Assembly: GCA_964016885.1 (NCBI GenBank)
Contig: OZ024740.1
Span: forward strand, 159,588,001 to 159,652,000
Direction of reading: 5' to 3'
Origin: Eledone cirrhosa
Lineage: Eukaryota
Length of the DNA stretch: 64,000 nucleotides
Shown here: in pieces, positions 1 through 30,629 of the stretch
How the letters are laid out: every line of letters begins with the position of its first letter
How positions within the stretch are numbered: the first letter of the stretch is position 1
The notes under the pieces: generated by a model
Databases searched by the model: none
What the model saw: the letters and a program-made list of their open reading frames with translations, nothing else
What the model was told of the DNA's origin: nothing
Translations under genes and position numbers: made by a program

Positions 1-1213
1 AAAGTTCTAGTTTGTAGGAAAGAAAACAAGGCGGCGGTCCCTTCTGGGAAATGGTCGTGCTCGGTGTGTAGGAAAGGCGTAGGTAGAAACTCCATTTTAT
101 GTCCTAAATGCAAAGTATGGGTGCATAAAAGATGTAGTGGGATCACAGGTAAGCTAACTAAGAACATAGATTTTACATGTGGCCGGTGTTCTGGTGCAAT
201 AAGTAGCAGCAAGTGCCCACAAAATACTAGCTCTTTCAATTGCGCAGAGGGTTCTATAGAAATAGTGGACAGCTTCCGTTACCTGGGCGATAAAATCAGC
301 AGTGGCGGAGGGTGCTCTGAAAGTACAGTAGCTAGAGTCAGAACTGGTTGGAAAAAGTTCAGAGAGCTTATACCACTATTAGCTGCTAAAGGGTTCTCCC
401 TAAAAATGAAAGGCAGGTTGTACGATGCCTGCATACGAACAGCAATGTTGCATGGCAGTGAGACCTGGGCATTGTGTGCAGAGGATATACGCAGACTAGA
501 GAGGAACGAAGCTTGCATGCTCCGCTGGATGTGTAACAGTAATATACGTGAACGGGAAAGCATAAACGAACTAAGGAAAAAATTAGAGATAAGAGGGATC
601 AGATGTTGTTTACTCGAGAGAAGGCTACGTTGGTATGGACACGTGATGCGCATGAAAGTCGATAGCTGTATAACAAAGTGCAGGGCAATAAAGATAGACG
701 GTAGCCACGGAATAGGCAGACCTAGAAAAACCTGGGACGAGCTGATAAACTCCGACCTCACACACTTACACCTCTCCAAGACAATGTCACTGGACCGAGA
801 TCTTTGGCGGTACTCAGTAACAGAGAAGACCCGCCTTGCCAGTAGGCATCTCTAACAAAATACACCCCGTCCCACCACCACCACCCCCACCCCATCCACA
901 CCACCCCGTTCTATGTAAAGTTATGTTGGTGCCGCGCCATCCAGCCCGAAACAAATGAGATCGTGTAGGTGTCACGACAAAAAAAACACACAGTCCACGC
1001 TGTAATGTGGCCGTGTAGGCAACACGGTAAAAACCTCCCAGACCCACACTGTAAATGTGGTTGGTGTTAGGAAGGGCATCCAACTGTAGAAAACCTGCCA
1101 GACAGTCCTATGCGAGCAAGACAATCACTCTTGCCTCAAGTGGGACTACCCCCGTCCAAACCCATGCAAGCGTGGAACACAGACGTTAAACGTTGATGAT
1201 GATGATGATGATG
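1..1213 (+). mobile_element. Young RTE-clade LINE, 3' part (RT C-terminus with PHD-like finger, 3' UTR, (GAT)n tail); runs off window start
   Basis: ORF 64-855 has FRYLGD, LHGSETW, RLRWYGHVMR, GRPRKTW motifs typical of RTE ORF ends; (GAT)n tail at ~1195-1213; near-identical to copies at 17.6k, 38.3k and 44.4k. Confidence 0.93.
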
Positions 1214-1555
1214 ATATACATATATATAGTATATATATATATATAGTATATATATATATGTTTATAAATATATACCATTCAATTATTGAGGTCATCATTT
1301 TAATAATATTTACCGGCACACAAATCTCATGGCTTGTGCATAGATTAAAATCCATTATTGTATTCTATGTATTTTCTTTTGTTTTGTTGTGGTGACTTCC
1401 CATCTGTCAGGGTAGTCTGTGGTTTTGTCTTATTTCAAGGATATTGGAAAGTCATAGTTTCTTTGTGTTGGTGCGTGAAATTTTTGGTTTATCATTAGCA
1501 TGATCTAAACTAATTTTTGTATATCTATTTTTATATATTTTTATATATATATATG

Positions 1556-1856
1556 GAGGCACATGGCTTGGTGGTTGGAGCATTGGCCTTGCAATCGAAG
1601 GGTTGTGGGTTCAATTCTCGGACCGGGTGATGTGTTGTTTCCTTGAGCAGGACACTTTATTTCATATTGCTCCAGTTTACTCAGCTGTAGAAATGAGATG
1701 ATAGGGACTGGGGTCCCTATCATCTCATTTCTGAGTAAACTGGAGCAATGTGAAATGGGGTGTCTTGCTCGGGGACGCAACACATCGCTCGGACTGAGAA
1801 TTGAACTCACAACCTTTTGTTTGCAAGGCTAATGCTCTAACCACTGGGCCATGTGC

Positions 1857-1859
<3 letters not shown>
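1556..1859. repeat. Fold-back inverted repeat made of two tail-to-tail halves of a tRNA-derived SINE
   Basis: Arms of ~150 bp centred on ATAGGGAC-tggg-GTCCCTAT (1701-1720); each arm matches SINE copies at 5291, 19470 and 41657; tRNA-like A/B-box head at the outer ends. Confidence 0.92.
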
Positions 1860-1891
<32 letters not shown>

Positions 1892-1972
1892 CTATATATA
1901 TATATATATATACTATATATATATATATATACTATGTATATACTATATATATATATATATATATATAATCGA

Positions 1973-2010
<38 letters not shown>

Positions 2011-2074
2011 TATATATATATATATATACTATATATACTATATATATATATACTATATATACAATTTTCTTTTT

Positions 2075-2293
2075 TTAATCGATCGACTTTCGTCAAATCG
2101 GACCGAGGAAACAATGTTTCCATTGGTCTTTCCAATTGCTAATACTATCTATCGGTCGCAACTCCAGGTAGAAGAAGCAACGTGAAATAAAGTGTCTTGC
2201 TCAAGGACATAACGCATCGCCTGGTCCAGGAATCGAACTCACAACCTTACGATTGCGAATCCAATTCTCTAACCACTCAGCCACACGCCTTCA
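2075..2293 (-). mobile_element. tRNA-derived SINE (related subfamily)
   Basis: Minus strand reads TGGCTGAGTGGTTAGAG...GTGAGTTCGATTCC (A and B boxes) followed by CCTTGAGCAAGACACTT. Confidence 0.8.
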
Positions 2294-2461
2294 CATATAC
2301 AATATATATATACTATATAAACTATATATATATACTATATATACTATATATACTATATATATATATACTATATATACTATATATATATATATATATATAT
2401 ACTATATATACAATATATATATATTTATATACTATATATACTATATATATATATATATATA

Positions 2462-2496
<35 letters not shown>

Positions 2497-2501
2497 ATAT
2501 A

Positions 2502-2537
<36 letters not shown>

Positions 2538-2922
2538 TATATATACTATATATATATATATACGATATATATATATATAATATATGTATATATACTATAT
2601 ATATACTATATATATATACTATATATATACTATATATATATATATATACTATATATATATATTATATATATATATATATACTATATATATATATATATAT
2701 ATACTATATATATATATATATAGTATATAATCTAATGGGCAGTATATATAATATATATATATCTATATATATATACTATATATAAATATATATATATATA
2801 TAAATATATATATATATAGTATATATGTATATATATATAAATACTATATTATATTTAGAGATTAGACTCATAGTCGTTTACAATTAATCAGCTCGAAGAA
2901 AGAGGCATTTCTGAGCAGTGAA

Positions 2923-3478
2923 ATACAAGTTATATATTAATATATATGATAAACACAAGACGTGTTTGTATTTTAACAGACAAGGTTGGCCAGCATGAAG
3001 TGAACTAGTTGAAGTGAATACAGTTTGTCTGTCTCGATATGGTCAATAGGGACAGGCTTATATTGGCAAAAGCCGTGATTCCAGGACAAATTTGAATTTC
3101 AAAATCCAGACCCGCTCCATGGATGAATTTGAGCTTCGAAACACAAATATGTTTCGCAACGATGGTACATGAATTGAAGAATAATGAGAATCAAAATGGA
3201 GTTGAAATAAAAAGTGAAATATCCAAATTCATGTACCATCGTTGCGAAACATATTTGGGTTTCGAAGTTCAAATTCATCTAGGGAGCGGGTTTGGATTTT
3301 GAAATTTGAATTTGTCCAGGAATCGCGGCTTTTGCCAATATAAGCTTGTCTTTGTTGACTATATCGAGACGGACAAGTTGTATTCACTTTAGTTGGTCTG
3401 TTTCATGCTGGCTAACTTTGTCTGTTACAATACAAACACGTTTTGTGTTTATCATATATATTAATATATAAGTTGTAT
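2923..3478. repeat. Long inverted repeat, 253 bp arms, 50 nt loop, no indels
   Basis: Position x pairs with 6401-x from 2923/3478 to 3175/3226; 30 mismatches counted by hand. Confidence 0.95.
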
Positions 3479-4240
3479 ATATAAATATATATATATAGTA
3501 TATATATATAAAAATATATATACTATGTATATATAAATATATATATATACTATATATTTATATACTATATATACAATATATATATATACTATATATACTA
3601 TATATATATACTATATATACTATATATACTATATATACTATATATATATATATACTATATATACTATATATATATATATATACTATATATACTATATATA
3701 TATACTATATATATATATATATATATACCATATATATATATACCATATATATATATACTATATATATATATATAGTATATATATATACTATATATACTAT
3801 ATATATATATACTATATATATATATATATATATATACCATATATACTATATATATATATATATATATATACTATATATATATACTATATATACTATATAT
3901 ATATATACTATATATATATATATACAATATATACTATATATACTATATATATATATATACAATATATATATATATATATAGTATATATGTATATATATAA
4001 ATATATATATATATATATAGTATATATGTATATATATAAATATATATATATATATAGTATATATGTATATATATAAATGTATATATATAGTATATATATA
4101 TAGTATATTTATATATAGTATATATGTATATATATAAATATATATATATATAGTATATATGTATAAATATAAATATATATATATATAGTATATATATATA
4201 TGTATAGTATATATATATAAATATAAATATATATATAAAT

Positions 4241-4275
<35 letters not shown>

Positions 4276-4294
4276 GTGTATATATATATATATA

Positions 4295-4371
<77 letters not shown>

Positions 4372-4393
4372 TATATACATATAGTGTATATAT

Positions 4394-4424
<31 letters not shown>

Positions 4425-4470
4425 GTGTATATATATATATATATATATAGTGTATATATATATATATATA

Positions 4471-4508
<38 letters not shown>

Positions 4509-4660
4509 TATATATATATATATATAGTATATATATATATATATATAGTATATATATATAGTTTATATATATATATATAGTATATATATATAGTATATAT
4601 ATATATAGTATATATATATATATAGTATATATATATATATAGTATATATGTATATATATA

Positions 4661-4771
<111 letters not shown>

Positions 4772-5290
4772 TATATATATATATATATATATATAGTATA
4801 TATATATAAAGTATATATATATATATATAGTATATATATATATATATAGTATATATATAGTATATATATATGTATAATATATATATATATAGTATATATA
4901 TATATAGTATATATATATATATAGTATATATATAGTATATGTATATATATAGTATATATATATATATAATATATATATATATAGTATATATATATATAGT
5001 ATATATATATATAGTATATATATAGTATATGTATATATATAGTATATAAATATATATAGTATATATATATATATCGTATATATATATGATATATATATAG
5101 TATATATATATATATATAGTATATCTATATAGTATATATATATATATATATAGTATATATATATAATATATATATATGTAGTATATATATATATATATAA
5201 ATATATATATATATAGTAGTATATATATATATATAGTATATATATATATATAGTATATATATATAGTATATATATATATATAAATAAATA

Positions 5291-5590
5291 TGTTGAGAGT
5301 TCTATTCTCAGACCGGGTGATGTGTTGTTTCCTTGACCAAGACACTTTATTTCACATTGCTCCAGTTTACTCAGCTGTAGAAATGAGATGATAGGGACTG
5401 GGGTCCATATCATTCCACTGCAAAGTGGTCGTGGAGGTGCCACGGCAAAAAAACACCCAGAACTCACTGTAAATGAGGTTGGTGTTAGGAAGGGCATCCA
5501 GCTGTAGAAATCAAGCCAAAATCAGTTCCCGTCCCACCCTTGCAAGCAGGGAAAAAACGGACGTAAAATGAAATGAAATGAAAATGAAAT
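5291..5590 (+). mobile_element. tRNA-derived SINE, 5'-truncated, (GAAAT)n tail
   Basis: Same body as copies at 19470 and 41657; AGGAAGGGCATCCAGCTGTAGAAA module; tail at 5567-5590. Confidence 0.85.
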
Positions 5591-6748: not shown

Positions 6749-7442
6749 TATATAGAGATTACAATAATCAAAGTTCAGTTTAAATCATTTATTTGCTTAC
6801 AATTGTTTCCTCCAAACGGGGGTTTGGATTCTTCGGAGCAACTATTTAGTGATCTATAACATACTTGACCTCCTTTTCAACACAAGAGACATATAAAACA
6901 TATGCACATATTGATCCACAGTGGGATGACATTCATCAAAATGATATAGCATGGCAATTTACATATAAAGGTTAAAGGATAAAAATAAAGATAAAAATGA
7001 AAATAAAAATGAAGTGTTGGCAGTCTATGAAGATAAAGCAAGAGGAAAGTTTAGAATAGTCAGTGTATGAAACAATCTCACGTGTAGCATGCACGCGTGC
7101 ATGCTACACGCGAGATTGTTTCATACACTGACTATTCTAAACTTTCCTCTTGCTTTATCTTCATAGACTGCCAACACTTCATTTTTATTTTCATTTTTAT
7201 CTTTATTTTTATCCTTTAACCTTTATATGTAAATTGCCATGCTATATCATTTTGATGAATGTCATCCCACTGTGGATCAATATGTGCATATGTTTTATAT
7301 GTCTCTTGTGTTGAAAAGGAGGTCAAGTATGTTATAGATCACTAAATAGTTGCTCCGAAGAATCCAAACCCCCGTTTGGAGGAAACAATTGTAAGCAAAT
7401 AAATGATTTAAACTGAACTTTGATTATTGTAATCTCTATATA
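6749..7442. repeat. Near-perfect 694 bp palindrome with no spacer, probably Penelope-like-element-derived
   Basis: Centre GCACG|CGTGC at 7095/7096; one mismatch seen (7080 vs 7111); each arm holds a hammerhead-like motif. Confidence 0.9.
7350..7398 (+). ncRNA. Type I minimal hammerhead ribozyme-like motif (mirror copy at 6793-6841, minus strand)
   Basis: TTGCT-CCGAAGA-a-TCCAAAC-cccc-GTTTGGA-g-GAAA-CAATTG-TA-AGCAA: stems I and II, palindromic stem III ACAATTGT; U4C core variant. Confidence 0.65.
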
Positions 7443-23995: not shown

Positions 23996-24924
23996 CAAGG
24001 CAATAGATAGATAGATGTAATGAGAAATGAGTTAGAGAGAGGGGGGGGGATAATAACAACAAGAGGGGAAGAGATTTATAGACAGAGAGGGAGAAACCTA
24101 ACTTAGCAAATATTAAACAAGCTCATAAACATCAAAGTCAGATTTTTCAAACTTTCATAGCATTGTGTATATACGTGTGTGTATGTGTGTAAGAGTGTGA
24201 TGGTGATGACAAAAATGTTTGACAATGATTATGACGATGGTGCTTATTATATGAGGACCATATTTATGATAATGACAATGGCAAGGAACATAACTTAATT
24301 TAATTATGGTGTTGTAGGGAAATATGTTGAGGAGGAGGAAGATAATCTTGAGGAGGAGGAGGAGGAGGAGGATTATGATGATGATGATGATGGTAATGGT
24401 GATATTTAGTTTTCTAAATTCCTTCTATATCAATTCATGCTAAGAACAGATACAATTTGAATGTATATATGTGCAAATAAGTACATGTACACACAATCGC
24501 CCACACACATCAACACTATATCATTTCTACTCTTGTTCAGATACTGTTATTGATATTTACTTCATACCAATAAATAATGGAAAATCTGAAGGATGCATTC
24601 ATCCTCATAGATATACACAGGTACACACATATACATACTTACATGCACATAAACACTCATACTAGTACAAAACATACTTACAGACACACACACTCATTCC
24701 ATTGTTCATAAACATATAGACACTGATACTCTCACCTTAAGCATATATTTATACCATACCACATATATAAACTAATGTACTGACACTACACACTCACACA
24801 CATACTGATATGATGCATACACACATATATACATATTCATACTATACATACATTAATACAGAAATTAACACAGACACATTCACACATAAGCTCAGACATA
24901 CATAAATTCTGACACCACATTCAC

Positions 24925-27900
24925 ACACACACACAGATATATCACCAACACACACACACAGACATATCACCAACACACACACAGACATATCACCAACACA
25001 CACACACAGACATATCAACAACACACACACAGATATATCACCAACACACACACACAGACATATCACCAACACACACACAGACATATCAACAACACACACA
25101 CAGACATATCACCAACACACACACAGACATATCAACAACACACACACAGACATATCACCAACAGACACACAGACATATCATCAACACACACACAGACATA
25201 TCACCAACACACACACACAGACATATCACCAACACACACACAGACATATCACCAACAAACACACACAGACATATCACCAACACACACAGACATATCACCA
25301 ACACACACAGACATATCACCCACACATATCACCAACACACACACACATACATATCACCAACACACACACACACAGACATATCACCAACAAACACACACAG
25401 ACATATCACCAACACACACACAGACATATCACCAACACACACACACAGACATATCACCAACACACACACACAGACATATCACCAACACACACACAGACAT
25501 ATCATCAACACACACATAGACATATCACCAACACACACACACAGACATATCACCAACAAACACACACAGACATACCACCAACACACACAGACATATCACC
25601 CACACATATCACCAACACACCCACACATACATATCACCAACACACACACACAGACATATCACCAACAAACACACACAGACATATCACCAACACACACACA
25701 GACATATCACCAACACACACACACAGACATATCACCAACACACACACACAGACATATCACCAACACACACAGACATATCACCCACACACACATAGACATA
25801 TCACCAACGCACACACATATGTATCACCAACACACACAGACAGACATATCACCAACACACACACGGACATATCAACAGCACACACACAGACATATCACCC
25901 ACACACACACAGACATATCACCAACACACACACATACATATCACCAACACACACACACAGACATATCACCAACACACAGACATACATATCACCAACACAC
26001 ACACACACAGACATATCACCAACACACACACACACACAGACATATCACCAACACACAGACAGACATATCACCAACACACACACAGACATATCACCAACAC
26101 ACACACAGACATATCACCAACACACACACACAGACATATCACCAACACACACACACAGACATATCACCACACACACAGACAGACATATCGCCAACACACA
26201 CACACAGACATATCACCAACACACACACACAGACATATCACCACACACACAGACAGACATATCGCCAACACACACACACAGACATATCACCAACACACAC
26301 ACAGACATATCAGCAACACACACACACAGACATATCACCAACACACACACAGACATATCACCAACACACACACAGACATATCACCAACACACACACACAG
26401 ACATATCAACAACACACACACAGACATATCACCAACACACACACAGACATATCACCAACACACACACACAGACATATCACCAACACACAGACAGACATAT
26501 CAACAACACAGACAGACATATCACCAACACACACACACACAGACATATCACCAACACACAGACAAACATATCACCAACACACACATACAGACATATCACC
26601 AACACACACACACACATATCACCAACACACACACACAGACAAATCACCAACAGACACAGACATATCACCAACACACAGACAGACATATCACCAACACACA
26701 CACAGACATATCACCAACACACACACGCACACAGACATATCACCAACACACACACACACATATCACCAACACACACACACACACACACACACAGACATAT
26801 CACCAACACACACACACACAGACATATCACCAACACACACACACATACATATCACCAACACACACACAGACATATCACCAACACACACACAGACATATCA
26901 CCAACACACACACACAGACATATCACCAACACACACACAGACATATCACCAACACACACACACAGACATATCACCAACACACACACAGACATATCACCAA
27001 CACACACACACAGACATATCACTAACACACACACACAGACATATCACCAACACACACACACAGACATATCACCAACACACAGACAGACATATCACCAACA
27101 CACACACACACACAGACATATCACCAACACACAGATACAGACATATCACCAACACACACACAGACATATCACCAACACACACACACACACAGAGATATGA
27201 CCAACACACACACAGACATATCACCAACACACACACACACAGACATATCACCAACACACACACACATACATATCACCAACACACACACAGACATATCACC
27301 AACACACACACAGACATATCACCAACACACACACACAGACATATCACCAACACACACACAGACATATCACCAACACACACACACAGACATATCACCAACA
27401 CACACACAGACATATCACCAACACACACACACAGACATATCACTAACACACACACACAGACATATCACCAACACACACACACAGACATATGACCAACACA
27501 CACACAGACATATCACCAACACACACACACACACAGACATATCACCAACACACACACAGACATATCACCAACAGACAGACAGACATATCACCAACACACA
27601 CACAGACATATCACCAACACACACACGCACACAGACATATCACCAACACACACACAGACATATCACCAACACACACACGCACACAGACATATCACCAACA
27701 CGCACACAGACATATCACCAACACACACACACAGACATATCACCAACACACACACAGACATATCACCAACACACACACACAGACATATCACCAACACACA
27801 CACACTGACATATCACCAACACACAGACAGACATATCACCAATACACACATAGACATATCACCAACACACACACACACACATATCACCAACACACACACA

Positions 27901-29380
27901 GACATATCACCAACACACACACAGACATATCACCAACACACACACAGACATATCACCAACACACACACACACACATATCACCAACACACACACAGACATA
28001 TCACCAACACACACACACACACATATCACCAACACACACACAGACATATCACCAACACACACACACATATCACCAACACACACACAGACATATCACCAAC
28101 ACACACACAGACATATCACCAACACACACACACACACATATCACCAACACACACACAGACATATCACCAACACACACACACAGACATATCACCAACACAC
28201 AGACAGACATATCACCAACACACACACACACACAGACATATCACCAACACACACACAGACATATCACCAACACACACACACAGACATATCACCAACACAC
28301 AGACATATCACCAACACACACACACACACAGACATATCACCAACACACACACAGACATATCACCAACACACACACACAGACATATCACCAACACACAGAC
28401 ATATCACCAACACACACACACACACAGACATATCACCAACACACACACACACATATCACCAACACACACACACAGACATATCACCAACACACAGACATAT
28501 CACCAACACACACACAGACATATCACCAACACACACACACAGACATATCACCAACACACACACACACACAGACATATCACCAACACACACACAGACATAT
28601 CACCAACACACACACAGACATATCACCAACACACACACAGACATATCACCAACACACACACACACATATCACCAACACACACACAGACATATCACCAACA
28701 CACAGACAGACATATCACCAACACACACACACACAGACATATCACCAACACACACACAGACATATCACCAACACACACACAGACATATCACCAACACACA
28801 CACACACACAGACATATCACCAACACACACACACACATATCACCAACACACACACACAGACATATCACCAACACACAGACATATCACCAACACACACACA
28901 GACATATCACCAACACACACACAGACATATCACCAACACACACACAGACATATCACCAACACACACACACAGACATATCACCAACACACACACACACACA
29001 GACATATCACCAACACACACACACACATATCACCAACACACACACACAGACATATCACCAACACACACACAGACATATCACCAACACACACACAGACATA
29101 TCACCAACACACAGACATATCACCAACACACACACAGACATATCACCAACACACACACAGACATATCACCAACACACACACACACACAGACATATCACCA
29201 ACACACACACAGACATATCACCAACACACACACAGACATATCACCAACACACAGATACAGACATATCACCAACACACACACACAGACATATCAACAGCAC
29301 ACACACAGATGTATCACCAACACACACACAGACATATCACCAACACACACACGCAGACATATCACCAACACACACATATA
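24925..29380. repeat. Minisatellite: GACATATCACCAA core plus variable (CA)n, ~18-32 bp units
   Basis: Seen directly; roughly 180 units; source of the T/H-rich pseudo-ORFs. Confidence 0.97.
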
Positions 29381-30629
29381 TATATTAATGCACACGCACA
29401 CGCACACACACATACACACACACATGCACACACACACATGAACACACACACACACACAGCCACATGAACACACACACACACACACACACACACACGATGC
29501 TGCTGGTGTCTGATATTACAAGAAGAAATCTTCTTTTAGCAAACCACTTGACATTTTAGAATTACACCATCATCACTCTCCTCCTCACAATCATCATCAT
29601 CATCATCATCATCATCACCACCATGATGCCCATCGTCATCATCACCACCATGACTATTATTCTCAGCACCACCATCAGCAGCAGCATCACAACCATCAAC
29701 AAAATTATCTCCAGCATGATCCTCATCATCATCATCACTGTTACTACTATCATATCAACACCATCAGCCTCCCTATTCCTATTAGCTTCATCCTTCCACA
29801 TCAACATTTTCCTCTTCCCCACCGCTCCATCACTACCAATAACACTTTTCCTACCTCCAACAAACCATTACTCCTCACCTCCCTTGTTGGGGTGTATCAA
29901 AAGCTTATATGCTTCATTGGACATGGTCTTATATATATATATACACACAGACACACACATACACAAACATTGATATACATACACACATATATTCATGTAC
30001 ATATATACAGAGCCATACACAAACGATGGCATCCTAAACATCATATCCTAACCAGCTCTGTTAAGTAATCAAAATTAATGCTTCACTAGATATGGACATT
30101 CACAAAGACACACACACATATATGAACACAACACACACAACACACTCTTGCACAGTCACTCATATAATACACATACAACATACACATTCTTGTACTATAT
30201 AGTACACATACAATACACACACACACACTAACTCAATACTCACACTTGTACAACTACACATAATAAATATACACACACATATGTATACACACTGCTGAAG
30301 ACTTAGAAATAACTATCCTCACATCTATTCTGGACACTGAAAATGAATATGATTATTATCTTGGGGAGTATGGTAGAAATAAACACACATACATGCACAT
30401 GCGCACACACATACACATGCACACACACATAATAAATGGATCTTCCATCAGTTTTGATGATGAGTATTCCAGCTATTCTAGCAAATGAACTTCCTACCTA
30501 TTCATAGTAATATTGTGTAAGTGGTTGAGTATTTCCACTAATATATGTATCCTTAACGTATCTTGAGATAGTACCAGCTGGGCACTCTGTGTGACAAGAG
30601 TGGATCTTTGAAATACCTATCTATATAAT

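Follow-up and report, generated by a model that had tools for sequence, protein, structure and literature searches.

The window analysed is a stretch of 64,000 nucleotides of the Eledone cirrhosa genome (C1:159588001-159652000; assembly size 3.0 Gb). It opens with the 3' part of a LINE (1..1213, + strand), which we take to be of the RTE-like class. This copy is 5'-truncated and its open frame of 995 codons runs from -2132 to 853, with the upstream portion located at L154:7668-10000. LINE copies 97-99% alike were also present at 38.3-41.4 kb and 44.4-46.2 kb of the window. The LINE adjoins segment X (1255..1530, + strand), a sequence found at two places in the assembly (2 of 2 candidates). A SINE snap-back, presumably of a tRNA-like class, was located by an inverted-repeat scan at 1554..1858 (+ strand), 1 kb upstream of the focal hairpin. 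A SINE of another family lies between the two hairpins on the - strand (2065..2300), and the arms of the focal hairpin follow at 2923-3175 and 3226-3478 (+ strand).

These features are set among (TA)n arrays. Arrays with a phase-shifting C occupy 1886-2059, 2307-2782 and 3544-3949 and are followed by arrays with a phase-shifting G at 3975-5159. The C-shifted and G-shifted arrays are reverse complements of each other (window 1886-5159; L156/L157, C1:222.41 Mb), and repeat addition by a telomerase-like reverse transcriptase is offered as a speculation on how they arose. A short non-repeat insert within the array (2723-2750) was seen in none of the other loci compared. The window also holds an almost loopless, near-perfect palindrome (6749-7442), which is either a very young fold-back or an assembly feature, and a long, strongly strand-skewed satellite of 23/25-bp units (24750-30000).

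The focal hairpin and its repeat family

The whole fold-back copy (2844..3478, + strand) consists of unit positions 1-385 in forward orientation followed by positions 332-80 inverted, in TA-rich surroundings; its start lies upstream of position 2923, from which an earlier note on this DNA had read the hairpin. An unpaired segment of 79 bp (2844..2922, + strand) spans the two fixed ends of the family (unit 1 and 80). The left arm (2923..3175) and right arm (3226..3478) pair ungapped along a single antidiagonal to form a 253 bp stem, closed by a loop of 50 nt (3176..3225). Mismatches were recounted as 16 G.T, 8 T.G, 1 A.C and 5 of transversion type, identical to the 30 of the earlier note, and the asymmetry of G.T over A.C gave p=1.5e-6 in a two-sided sign test, in agreement with the one-sided value of ~8e-7 reported there. 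Folding energy was -385.4 kcal/mol for the + strand and -320.3 for the - strand.

The focal arm belongs to a repeat family with at least 47 matches when the best 40 of 1384 candidates were scored. The repeat unit is ~565 bp, non-coding, and occurs as partial tandems and inverted truncated copies within (TA)n. An inversion is present in 42 of 57 distinct structures, the window among them; of their 114 outer ends, 83 coincide with unit position 1-3 or 80. Across the inversion junction of the window (3225/3226) an exact pattern matched the assembly once, at the window itself, and a DNA search across the same junction returned other junctions only among the best 40 of 1140 candidates.

The sequence identifies the focal hairpin as a folded-back copy of a young repeat (~565 bp) whose anatomy is Penelope-like, the class being a candidate assignment. 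Partial tandems accompanied by an inverted, truncated neighbour, a choice of two fixed ends, and (TA)n as target were all found, and the sections of the literature consulted describe such an anatomy for Penelope-like elements (PMC8557442) and attribute their two ends to two reverse-transcription start sites (PMC11167929). Penelope-like elements, above all Naiad and non-autonomous derivatives, as portrayed there, share the partial tandems, the inverted truncated neighbour, the two fixed ends and (TA)n (PMC8557442, PMC11167929, PMC3846280). They differ in that no coding remnant, hammerhead or autonomous partner was found here, and in the segment between the two ends, which is 79 bp here against 30-40 bp in the elements described. 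Non-coding tandem units thought to be Penelope-derived are likewise described, in the part of the preprint on non-LTR retrozymes that was available (bioRxiv 10.64898/2026.07.22.740005); the difference is that a hammerhead ribozyme was not detected in the present unit.

Pfam profiles had no match in the six frames of the repeat unit, and GIY-YIG-like words in its translation were set aside as chance, having no Pfam support. No autonomous partner was found among 30 GIY-YIG loci examined, of 150 matches listed; relatives of the repeat occur in 3 of the 30, where they look like separate insertions in TA tracts. Older relatives lie just behind GIY-YIG-coding elements, in a TA tract, at L094:7-557, L119:675-761 and L112:2443-2660. 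Rfam gave 91 matches with E up to 1 in five loci; none was a hammerhead ribozyme and none reached the gathering score, a search that variant hammerheads could escape. Classification as a retrozyme was rejected because no hammerhead was detected per unit, and classification as a MITE because inversion points vary between copies and 15 of 57 structures have no inversion, so that terminal inverted repeats are not shared.

Polarised changes in the two hairpins

The earlier note had held that no sibling copy was available for polarising the mismatches. This is so within the window; genome-wide, siblings exist (91 exact motif matches). Changes were polarised against 7 loci of the same subfamily (20 alignments). 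On this reference each of the 24 wobbles goes back to an A>G change of the + strand, with no C>T among them; the polarity was unchanged at 24/24 A>G with a whole-family reference of 60 alignments. The 24 changes are private to the window copy, 16 in the left arm and 8 in the right. Over 635 bp the window copy differs from the subfamily by 34 changes, comprising 25 A>G (+ strand) and 9 others.

In the left arm 16 of 100 As are G (2959, 2984, 2988, 3000, 3002, 3008, 3011, 3023, 3041, 3049, 3050, 3055, 3094, 3109, 3121, 3133), with 4 further changes. In the right arm 8 of 74 are G (3308, 3325, 3354, 3371, 3377, 3392, 3395, 3400), with 1 T>C (3398) and 2 C>G. The loop has 1 of 28 As changed to G (3179, 4 nt off the stem) and the unpaired 79 bp segment 0 of 28. 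A>G thus affects 24/174 sites in the stem, against 1/174 for T>C in the stem (p=3.5e-7) and 1/56 for unpaired As (p=0.006). The changes lie 37-211 bp from the base of the stem, leaving the outer 36 bp and inner 42 bp free, in line with the ~35 bp of wobble-free stem noted before at either end.

The base 5' of the 24 sites is A in 12, T in 10, C in 2 and G in none, which agrees with the 22 U/A, 2 C and no G of the earlier note. None of 24 As with a 5' G was changed (p=0.02), and 8 of 18 with a 3' G were (p=7e-4), including all four TAG sites (2988, 3041, 3121, 3395), which had been singled out earlier as UAG contexts. These neighbours match published ADAR preferences, given as 5' U>A>C>G with 3' G first in the section of PMC11019741 that deals with them. 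Sense-strand G>A clusters of APOBEC type were not seen, the 635 bp containing 2 G>A and 0 C>T.

Among the 91 exact motif matches, 86 had no G, four had one G, and the window alone had five. Further edited copies of the Penelope-like repeat and SINE families were searched for, and single matches, to the window only, were returned. At the changed sites that they cover (8 listed), contigs from three other organisms have A. The siblings diverge by 0.3-2.3% from the subfamily majority and have no A>G excess like that of the window; C>T (128) and A>G (132) are near equal among their substitutions. The A>G changes of the focal hairpin are confined to the stem, lie on the + strand, have ADAR-like context and are absent from the siblings.

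The SINE snap-back (1554..1858) has 19 G.T mismatches and 0 A.C. Against 28 sibling alignments its stem shows A>G at 15/77 and T>C at 0/80 (p=1e-5, + strand), with a 3' G at 9 of the 15 sites and a 5' G at 1. Its stem pairs hold 3 C>T against 15 A>G, in addition to one C>T common to the subfamily. A search for the SINE motif with both changes matched the assembly at one place. Changes other than A>G are uneven in this hairpin, 1 in the left arm and 6 in the right, which was counted against the preferred reading given below. The intervening SINE (2065..2300) serves as an internal negative control, its 235 bp differing at a single site (T>C) and showing no A>G, and neither the flanking LINEs, including the copy at 1..1213, nor a SINE at 5292 have an A>G excess. 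The SINE hairpin carries the same signature as the focal hairpin, on the same strand, in an unrelated family. The marking of two unrelated families on one strand within 2 kb points to a single RNA of at least 1.9 kb.

The duplicated block and other hairpins

The second copy of segment X lies on the - strand at C1:222417342-222417617, 63 Mb from the window; the SINE fold-back junction that comes after it is the one seen in the window, in unedited form. Window and paralogue differ at 14 positions in 275 bp of segment X, 2 of them A/G. These A/G differences, unpolarised, affect 2 of the 71 As of segment X and were counted against the preferred reading. In the SINE fold-back all 10 A/G differences that can be aligned have A in the paralogue; at one of them (1695) it is the paralogue that changed. 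It lacks ~93 bp of the right SINE arm, lost between short similar repeats. The Penelope-like hairpin and the second SINE are absent from the paralogue over ~10 kb searched on each side. The sequences indicate that the upstream block (segment X and SINE fold-back) is a duplicate of the block at C1:222.4 Mb.

C-shifted and then G-shifted TA arrays also stand, in that order, behind the SINE hairpin of the paralogue, an array type met 0 times in 800 kb sampled. Because both loci continue into these rare arrays, the shared block probably extends to ~5160. In the paralogue the array is uninterrupted; in the window the second SINE and the Penelope-like hairpin break it up. Editing within the TA arrays was discarded as evidence; their TGT/ACA bias is locus-specific everywhere and uninformative. 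Divergence was 9/635 (1.4%) for the focal hairpin and, per lineage, 14/550 (2.5%) for segment X (p=0.21), which leaves the order of duplication and hairpin formation unset.

Inverted repeats (n=148) were compared in 904 kb, comprising the window, its flanks, the paralogue region and 40 evenly spaced 20-kb samples. Mismatch asymmetry at p<0.05 was found only where the present tract was involved, and in none of 124 further inverted repeats (168 loci). A transition-tolerant scan was added, a heavily edited hairpin having been missed by BLAST. In 155 segments of the 800 kb sample it returned no asymmetric inverted repeat other than microsatellites, its two matches being degenerate TATG/CATA microsatellites. 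A separate hairpin at L262:5024-5316 has 32 A.C and 0 G.T on the + strand, that is, G.U pairs on the minus strand, with a 5' U/A at 31 of 32 sites and no 5' G. One more hairpin elsewhere in the genome has a mismatch asymmetry of 11 to 1, a partial confirmation. The process recurs in this genome yet is rare per hairpin. Other fold-backs are clean: the palindrome at 6749-7442 has 345 pairs with 1 mismatch, one just upstream has 267 pairs with 2, and one in L059 has 611 pairs without a transition.

Probable origin of the changes and possible routes into the chromosome

We consider it probable, at roughly 0.87, that one ADAR-edited RNA of at least 1.9 kb, spanning both hairpins, was reverse-transcribed into germline DNA. 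Transcribed from the + strand over at least 1.9 kb (1554-3478), this RNA would have folded into two duplexes, in which ADAR would have converted ~14% (focal hairpin) and ~19% (SINE hairpin) of stem As to inosine. A retroelement reverse transcriptase would have read inosine as G, and the cDNA would have entered germline DNA either as a new copy or by overwriting its own locus. The ADAR origin proposed in the earlier note is supported by the polarity of the wobbles (24/24 A>G) and by their ADAR-like neighbours. A predicted deaminase exon of ADAR2-like type is encoded in the genome; it contains the HAE and PCG motifs, and its best match among solved structures is human ADAR2 (E=3e-102). The locus has no open frame of 300 aa, its exons being shorter. 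Under the usual insertion model, in which both arms derive from sense RNA, edits would be expected to turn up as T>C of the + strand in one of the arms and as A>G in its partner. As A>G stands on the + strand in both arms, the template strand would already have carried both.

Deamination of the DNA itself, either by ADAR acting on the + strand paired with RNA or by another deaminase acting on DNA hairpins, is improbable. In the experiments of PMC5389660 on which we draw, ADARs were active on DNA/RNA hybrids with their usual context preference, at rates at least 20-fold below those on RNA/RNA, and DNA/DNA duplexes gave no product. An ordinary R-loop would also cover the loop, the flank and the intervening SINE, which are unchanged (1/56 and 0), and gradual deamination should have left marks on other hairpins too, yet these are balanced. 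Since DNA/DNA gives no product, hybrids are slow and an R-loop would not spare loop and spacer, copying of an edited RNA into DNA is the reading retained. Slightly less probable again is an artefact of sequencing, polishing or assembly at palindromes. Systematic clusters of G-to-A errors have entered assemblies before, according to part of PMC2873906; here the other fold-backs are clean and the changes are ADAR-like in context and limited to the stem.

Long hairpins with G.U pairs on one strand are also known from Drosophila hpRNA/endo-siRNA loci, and selection for such a G.U-rich RNA was the alternative put forward in the earlier note. The pairing kept on the + strand, as measured by the folding energies above, would suit it. 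Selection of wobbles fails because C>T would give the same wobbles, is as common as A>G in the siblings and accounts for 0/24 here. The 9 other changes in 635 bp are like those of the subfamily, and avoidance of a 5' G is left without reason. In contrast to the Drosophila loci, the wobbles here are all private A>G changes in enzyme context in a young transposon copy. This reading, together with plain neutral or CpG decay, is largely refuted and the least credible of those weighed.

For the route by which the edited RNA reached the chromosome, the more likely of two possibilities is a new copy, taken either from the C1:222.4 Mb locus or from an intermediate since lost, with the source later losing the Penelope-like hairpin. 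The block is duplicated, the paralogue is already shortened by ~93 bp and the clocks are compatible (1.4% vs 2.5%, p=0.21). Duplication and editing would be combined in one event, but the source must have lost the hairpin. The want of a parent with the Penelope-like junction, and of the hairpin and second SINE at the paralogue, was counted against the best reading, and no target-site duplication or reverse-transcriptase start site tying the block to one insertion was found. According to the section of PMC3846280 consulted, Penelope elements are able to mobilise host sequence in trans. Three narrower proposals were rejected: priming at the right end of the element (3478) with 5' carry-over, as the TA arrays run on to ~5160; 3' transduction by the upstream LINE, as no common flank repeat was found, this LINE copy lacks its 5' part and none stands upstream in the paralogue; and identification of the paralogue as source from the age of the element upstream of its segment X, which has siblings at 96% and gives no proof.

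The other route, nested within the same explanation, was ranked below the new copy and is held tentatively. The block would have been duplicated unedited, the fold-back formed at the present locus, and the cDNA of the edited transcript would have replaced its own locus by RNA-templated repair or gene conversion. The missing parent is then explained because the Penelope-like fold-back formed here, its junction having no second copy; the hairpin and second SINE interrupt an array that is intact in the paralogue, and the sequence immediately upstream holds, in the same orientation, a LINE with an open frame. This would require a rare event plus a separate duplication, whereas one retro-copy covers both. 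The upstream LINE is 5'-truncated, a younger age of the hairpin relative to the duplication is not borne out by the clocks (p=0.21), and the literature on such rewriting is a hypothesis review in the portion we draw on (PMC12941027).

Among the open-access papers listed in literature searches, none describes host repeats that were edited by ADAR and became fixed in the genome of an animal, the nearest cases being avian retroviruses and APOBEC editing. In the former (Rous-associated virus U3, avian leukosis virus inverted repeat), the passages of PMC12925331 consulted describe ADAR-type A>G in an inverted repeat of a reverse-transcribed RNA. The present changes lie instead in non-viral host repeats of a chromosome assembly, with two unrelated hairpins per tract, and affect 14-19% of stem As against nearly 50% in those viruses (PMC12925331). 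APOBEC-edited LTR retrotransposons of vertebrates, as treated in the relevant parts of PMC4866542 and PMC2873906, likewise carry clustered, strand-biased deaminase marks that arose in retrotransposition and became fixed, and were, as here, polarised by family majorities. That system differs in being G>A made on cDNA of LTR elements by a cytidine deaminase, whereas here A>G is duplex-confined and placed on RNA; the same parts report APOBEC-type DNA editing to be absent from 19 invertebrates (PMC4866542, PMC2873906).

The case is well controlled, since the two hairpins are unrelated and both the spacer and a paralogue are unedited. A-to-I editing is regarded as transient; on the preferred reading, an edited RNA copied into DNA, the locus would be a single-molecule record of such editing in chromosomal DNA, from which the strand, minimum length and folding of a vanished germline RNA can be read. 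The editing enzyme would then be a clustered, heritable mutagen by way of reverse transcription. Should the cDNA have overwritten its own locus, at least 39 RNA edits over 1.9 kb would have been made heritable without a new insertion. The locus lets retro-copying and in-place RNA-templated rewriting be set against each other through population alleles.
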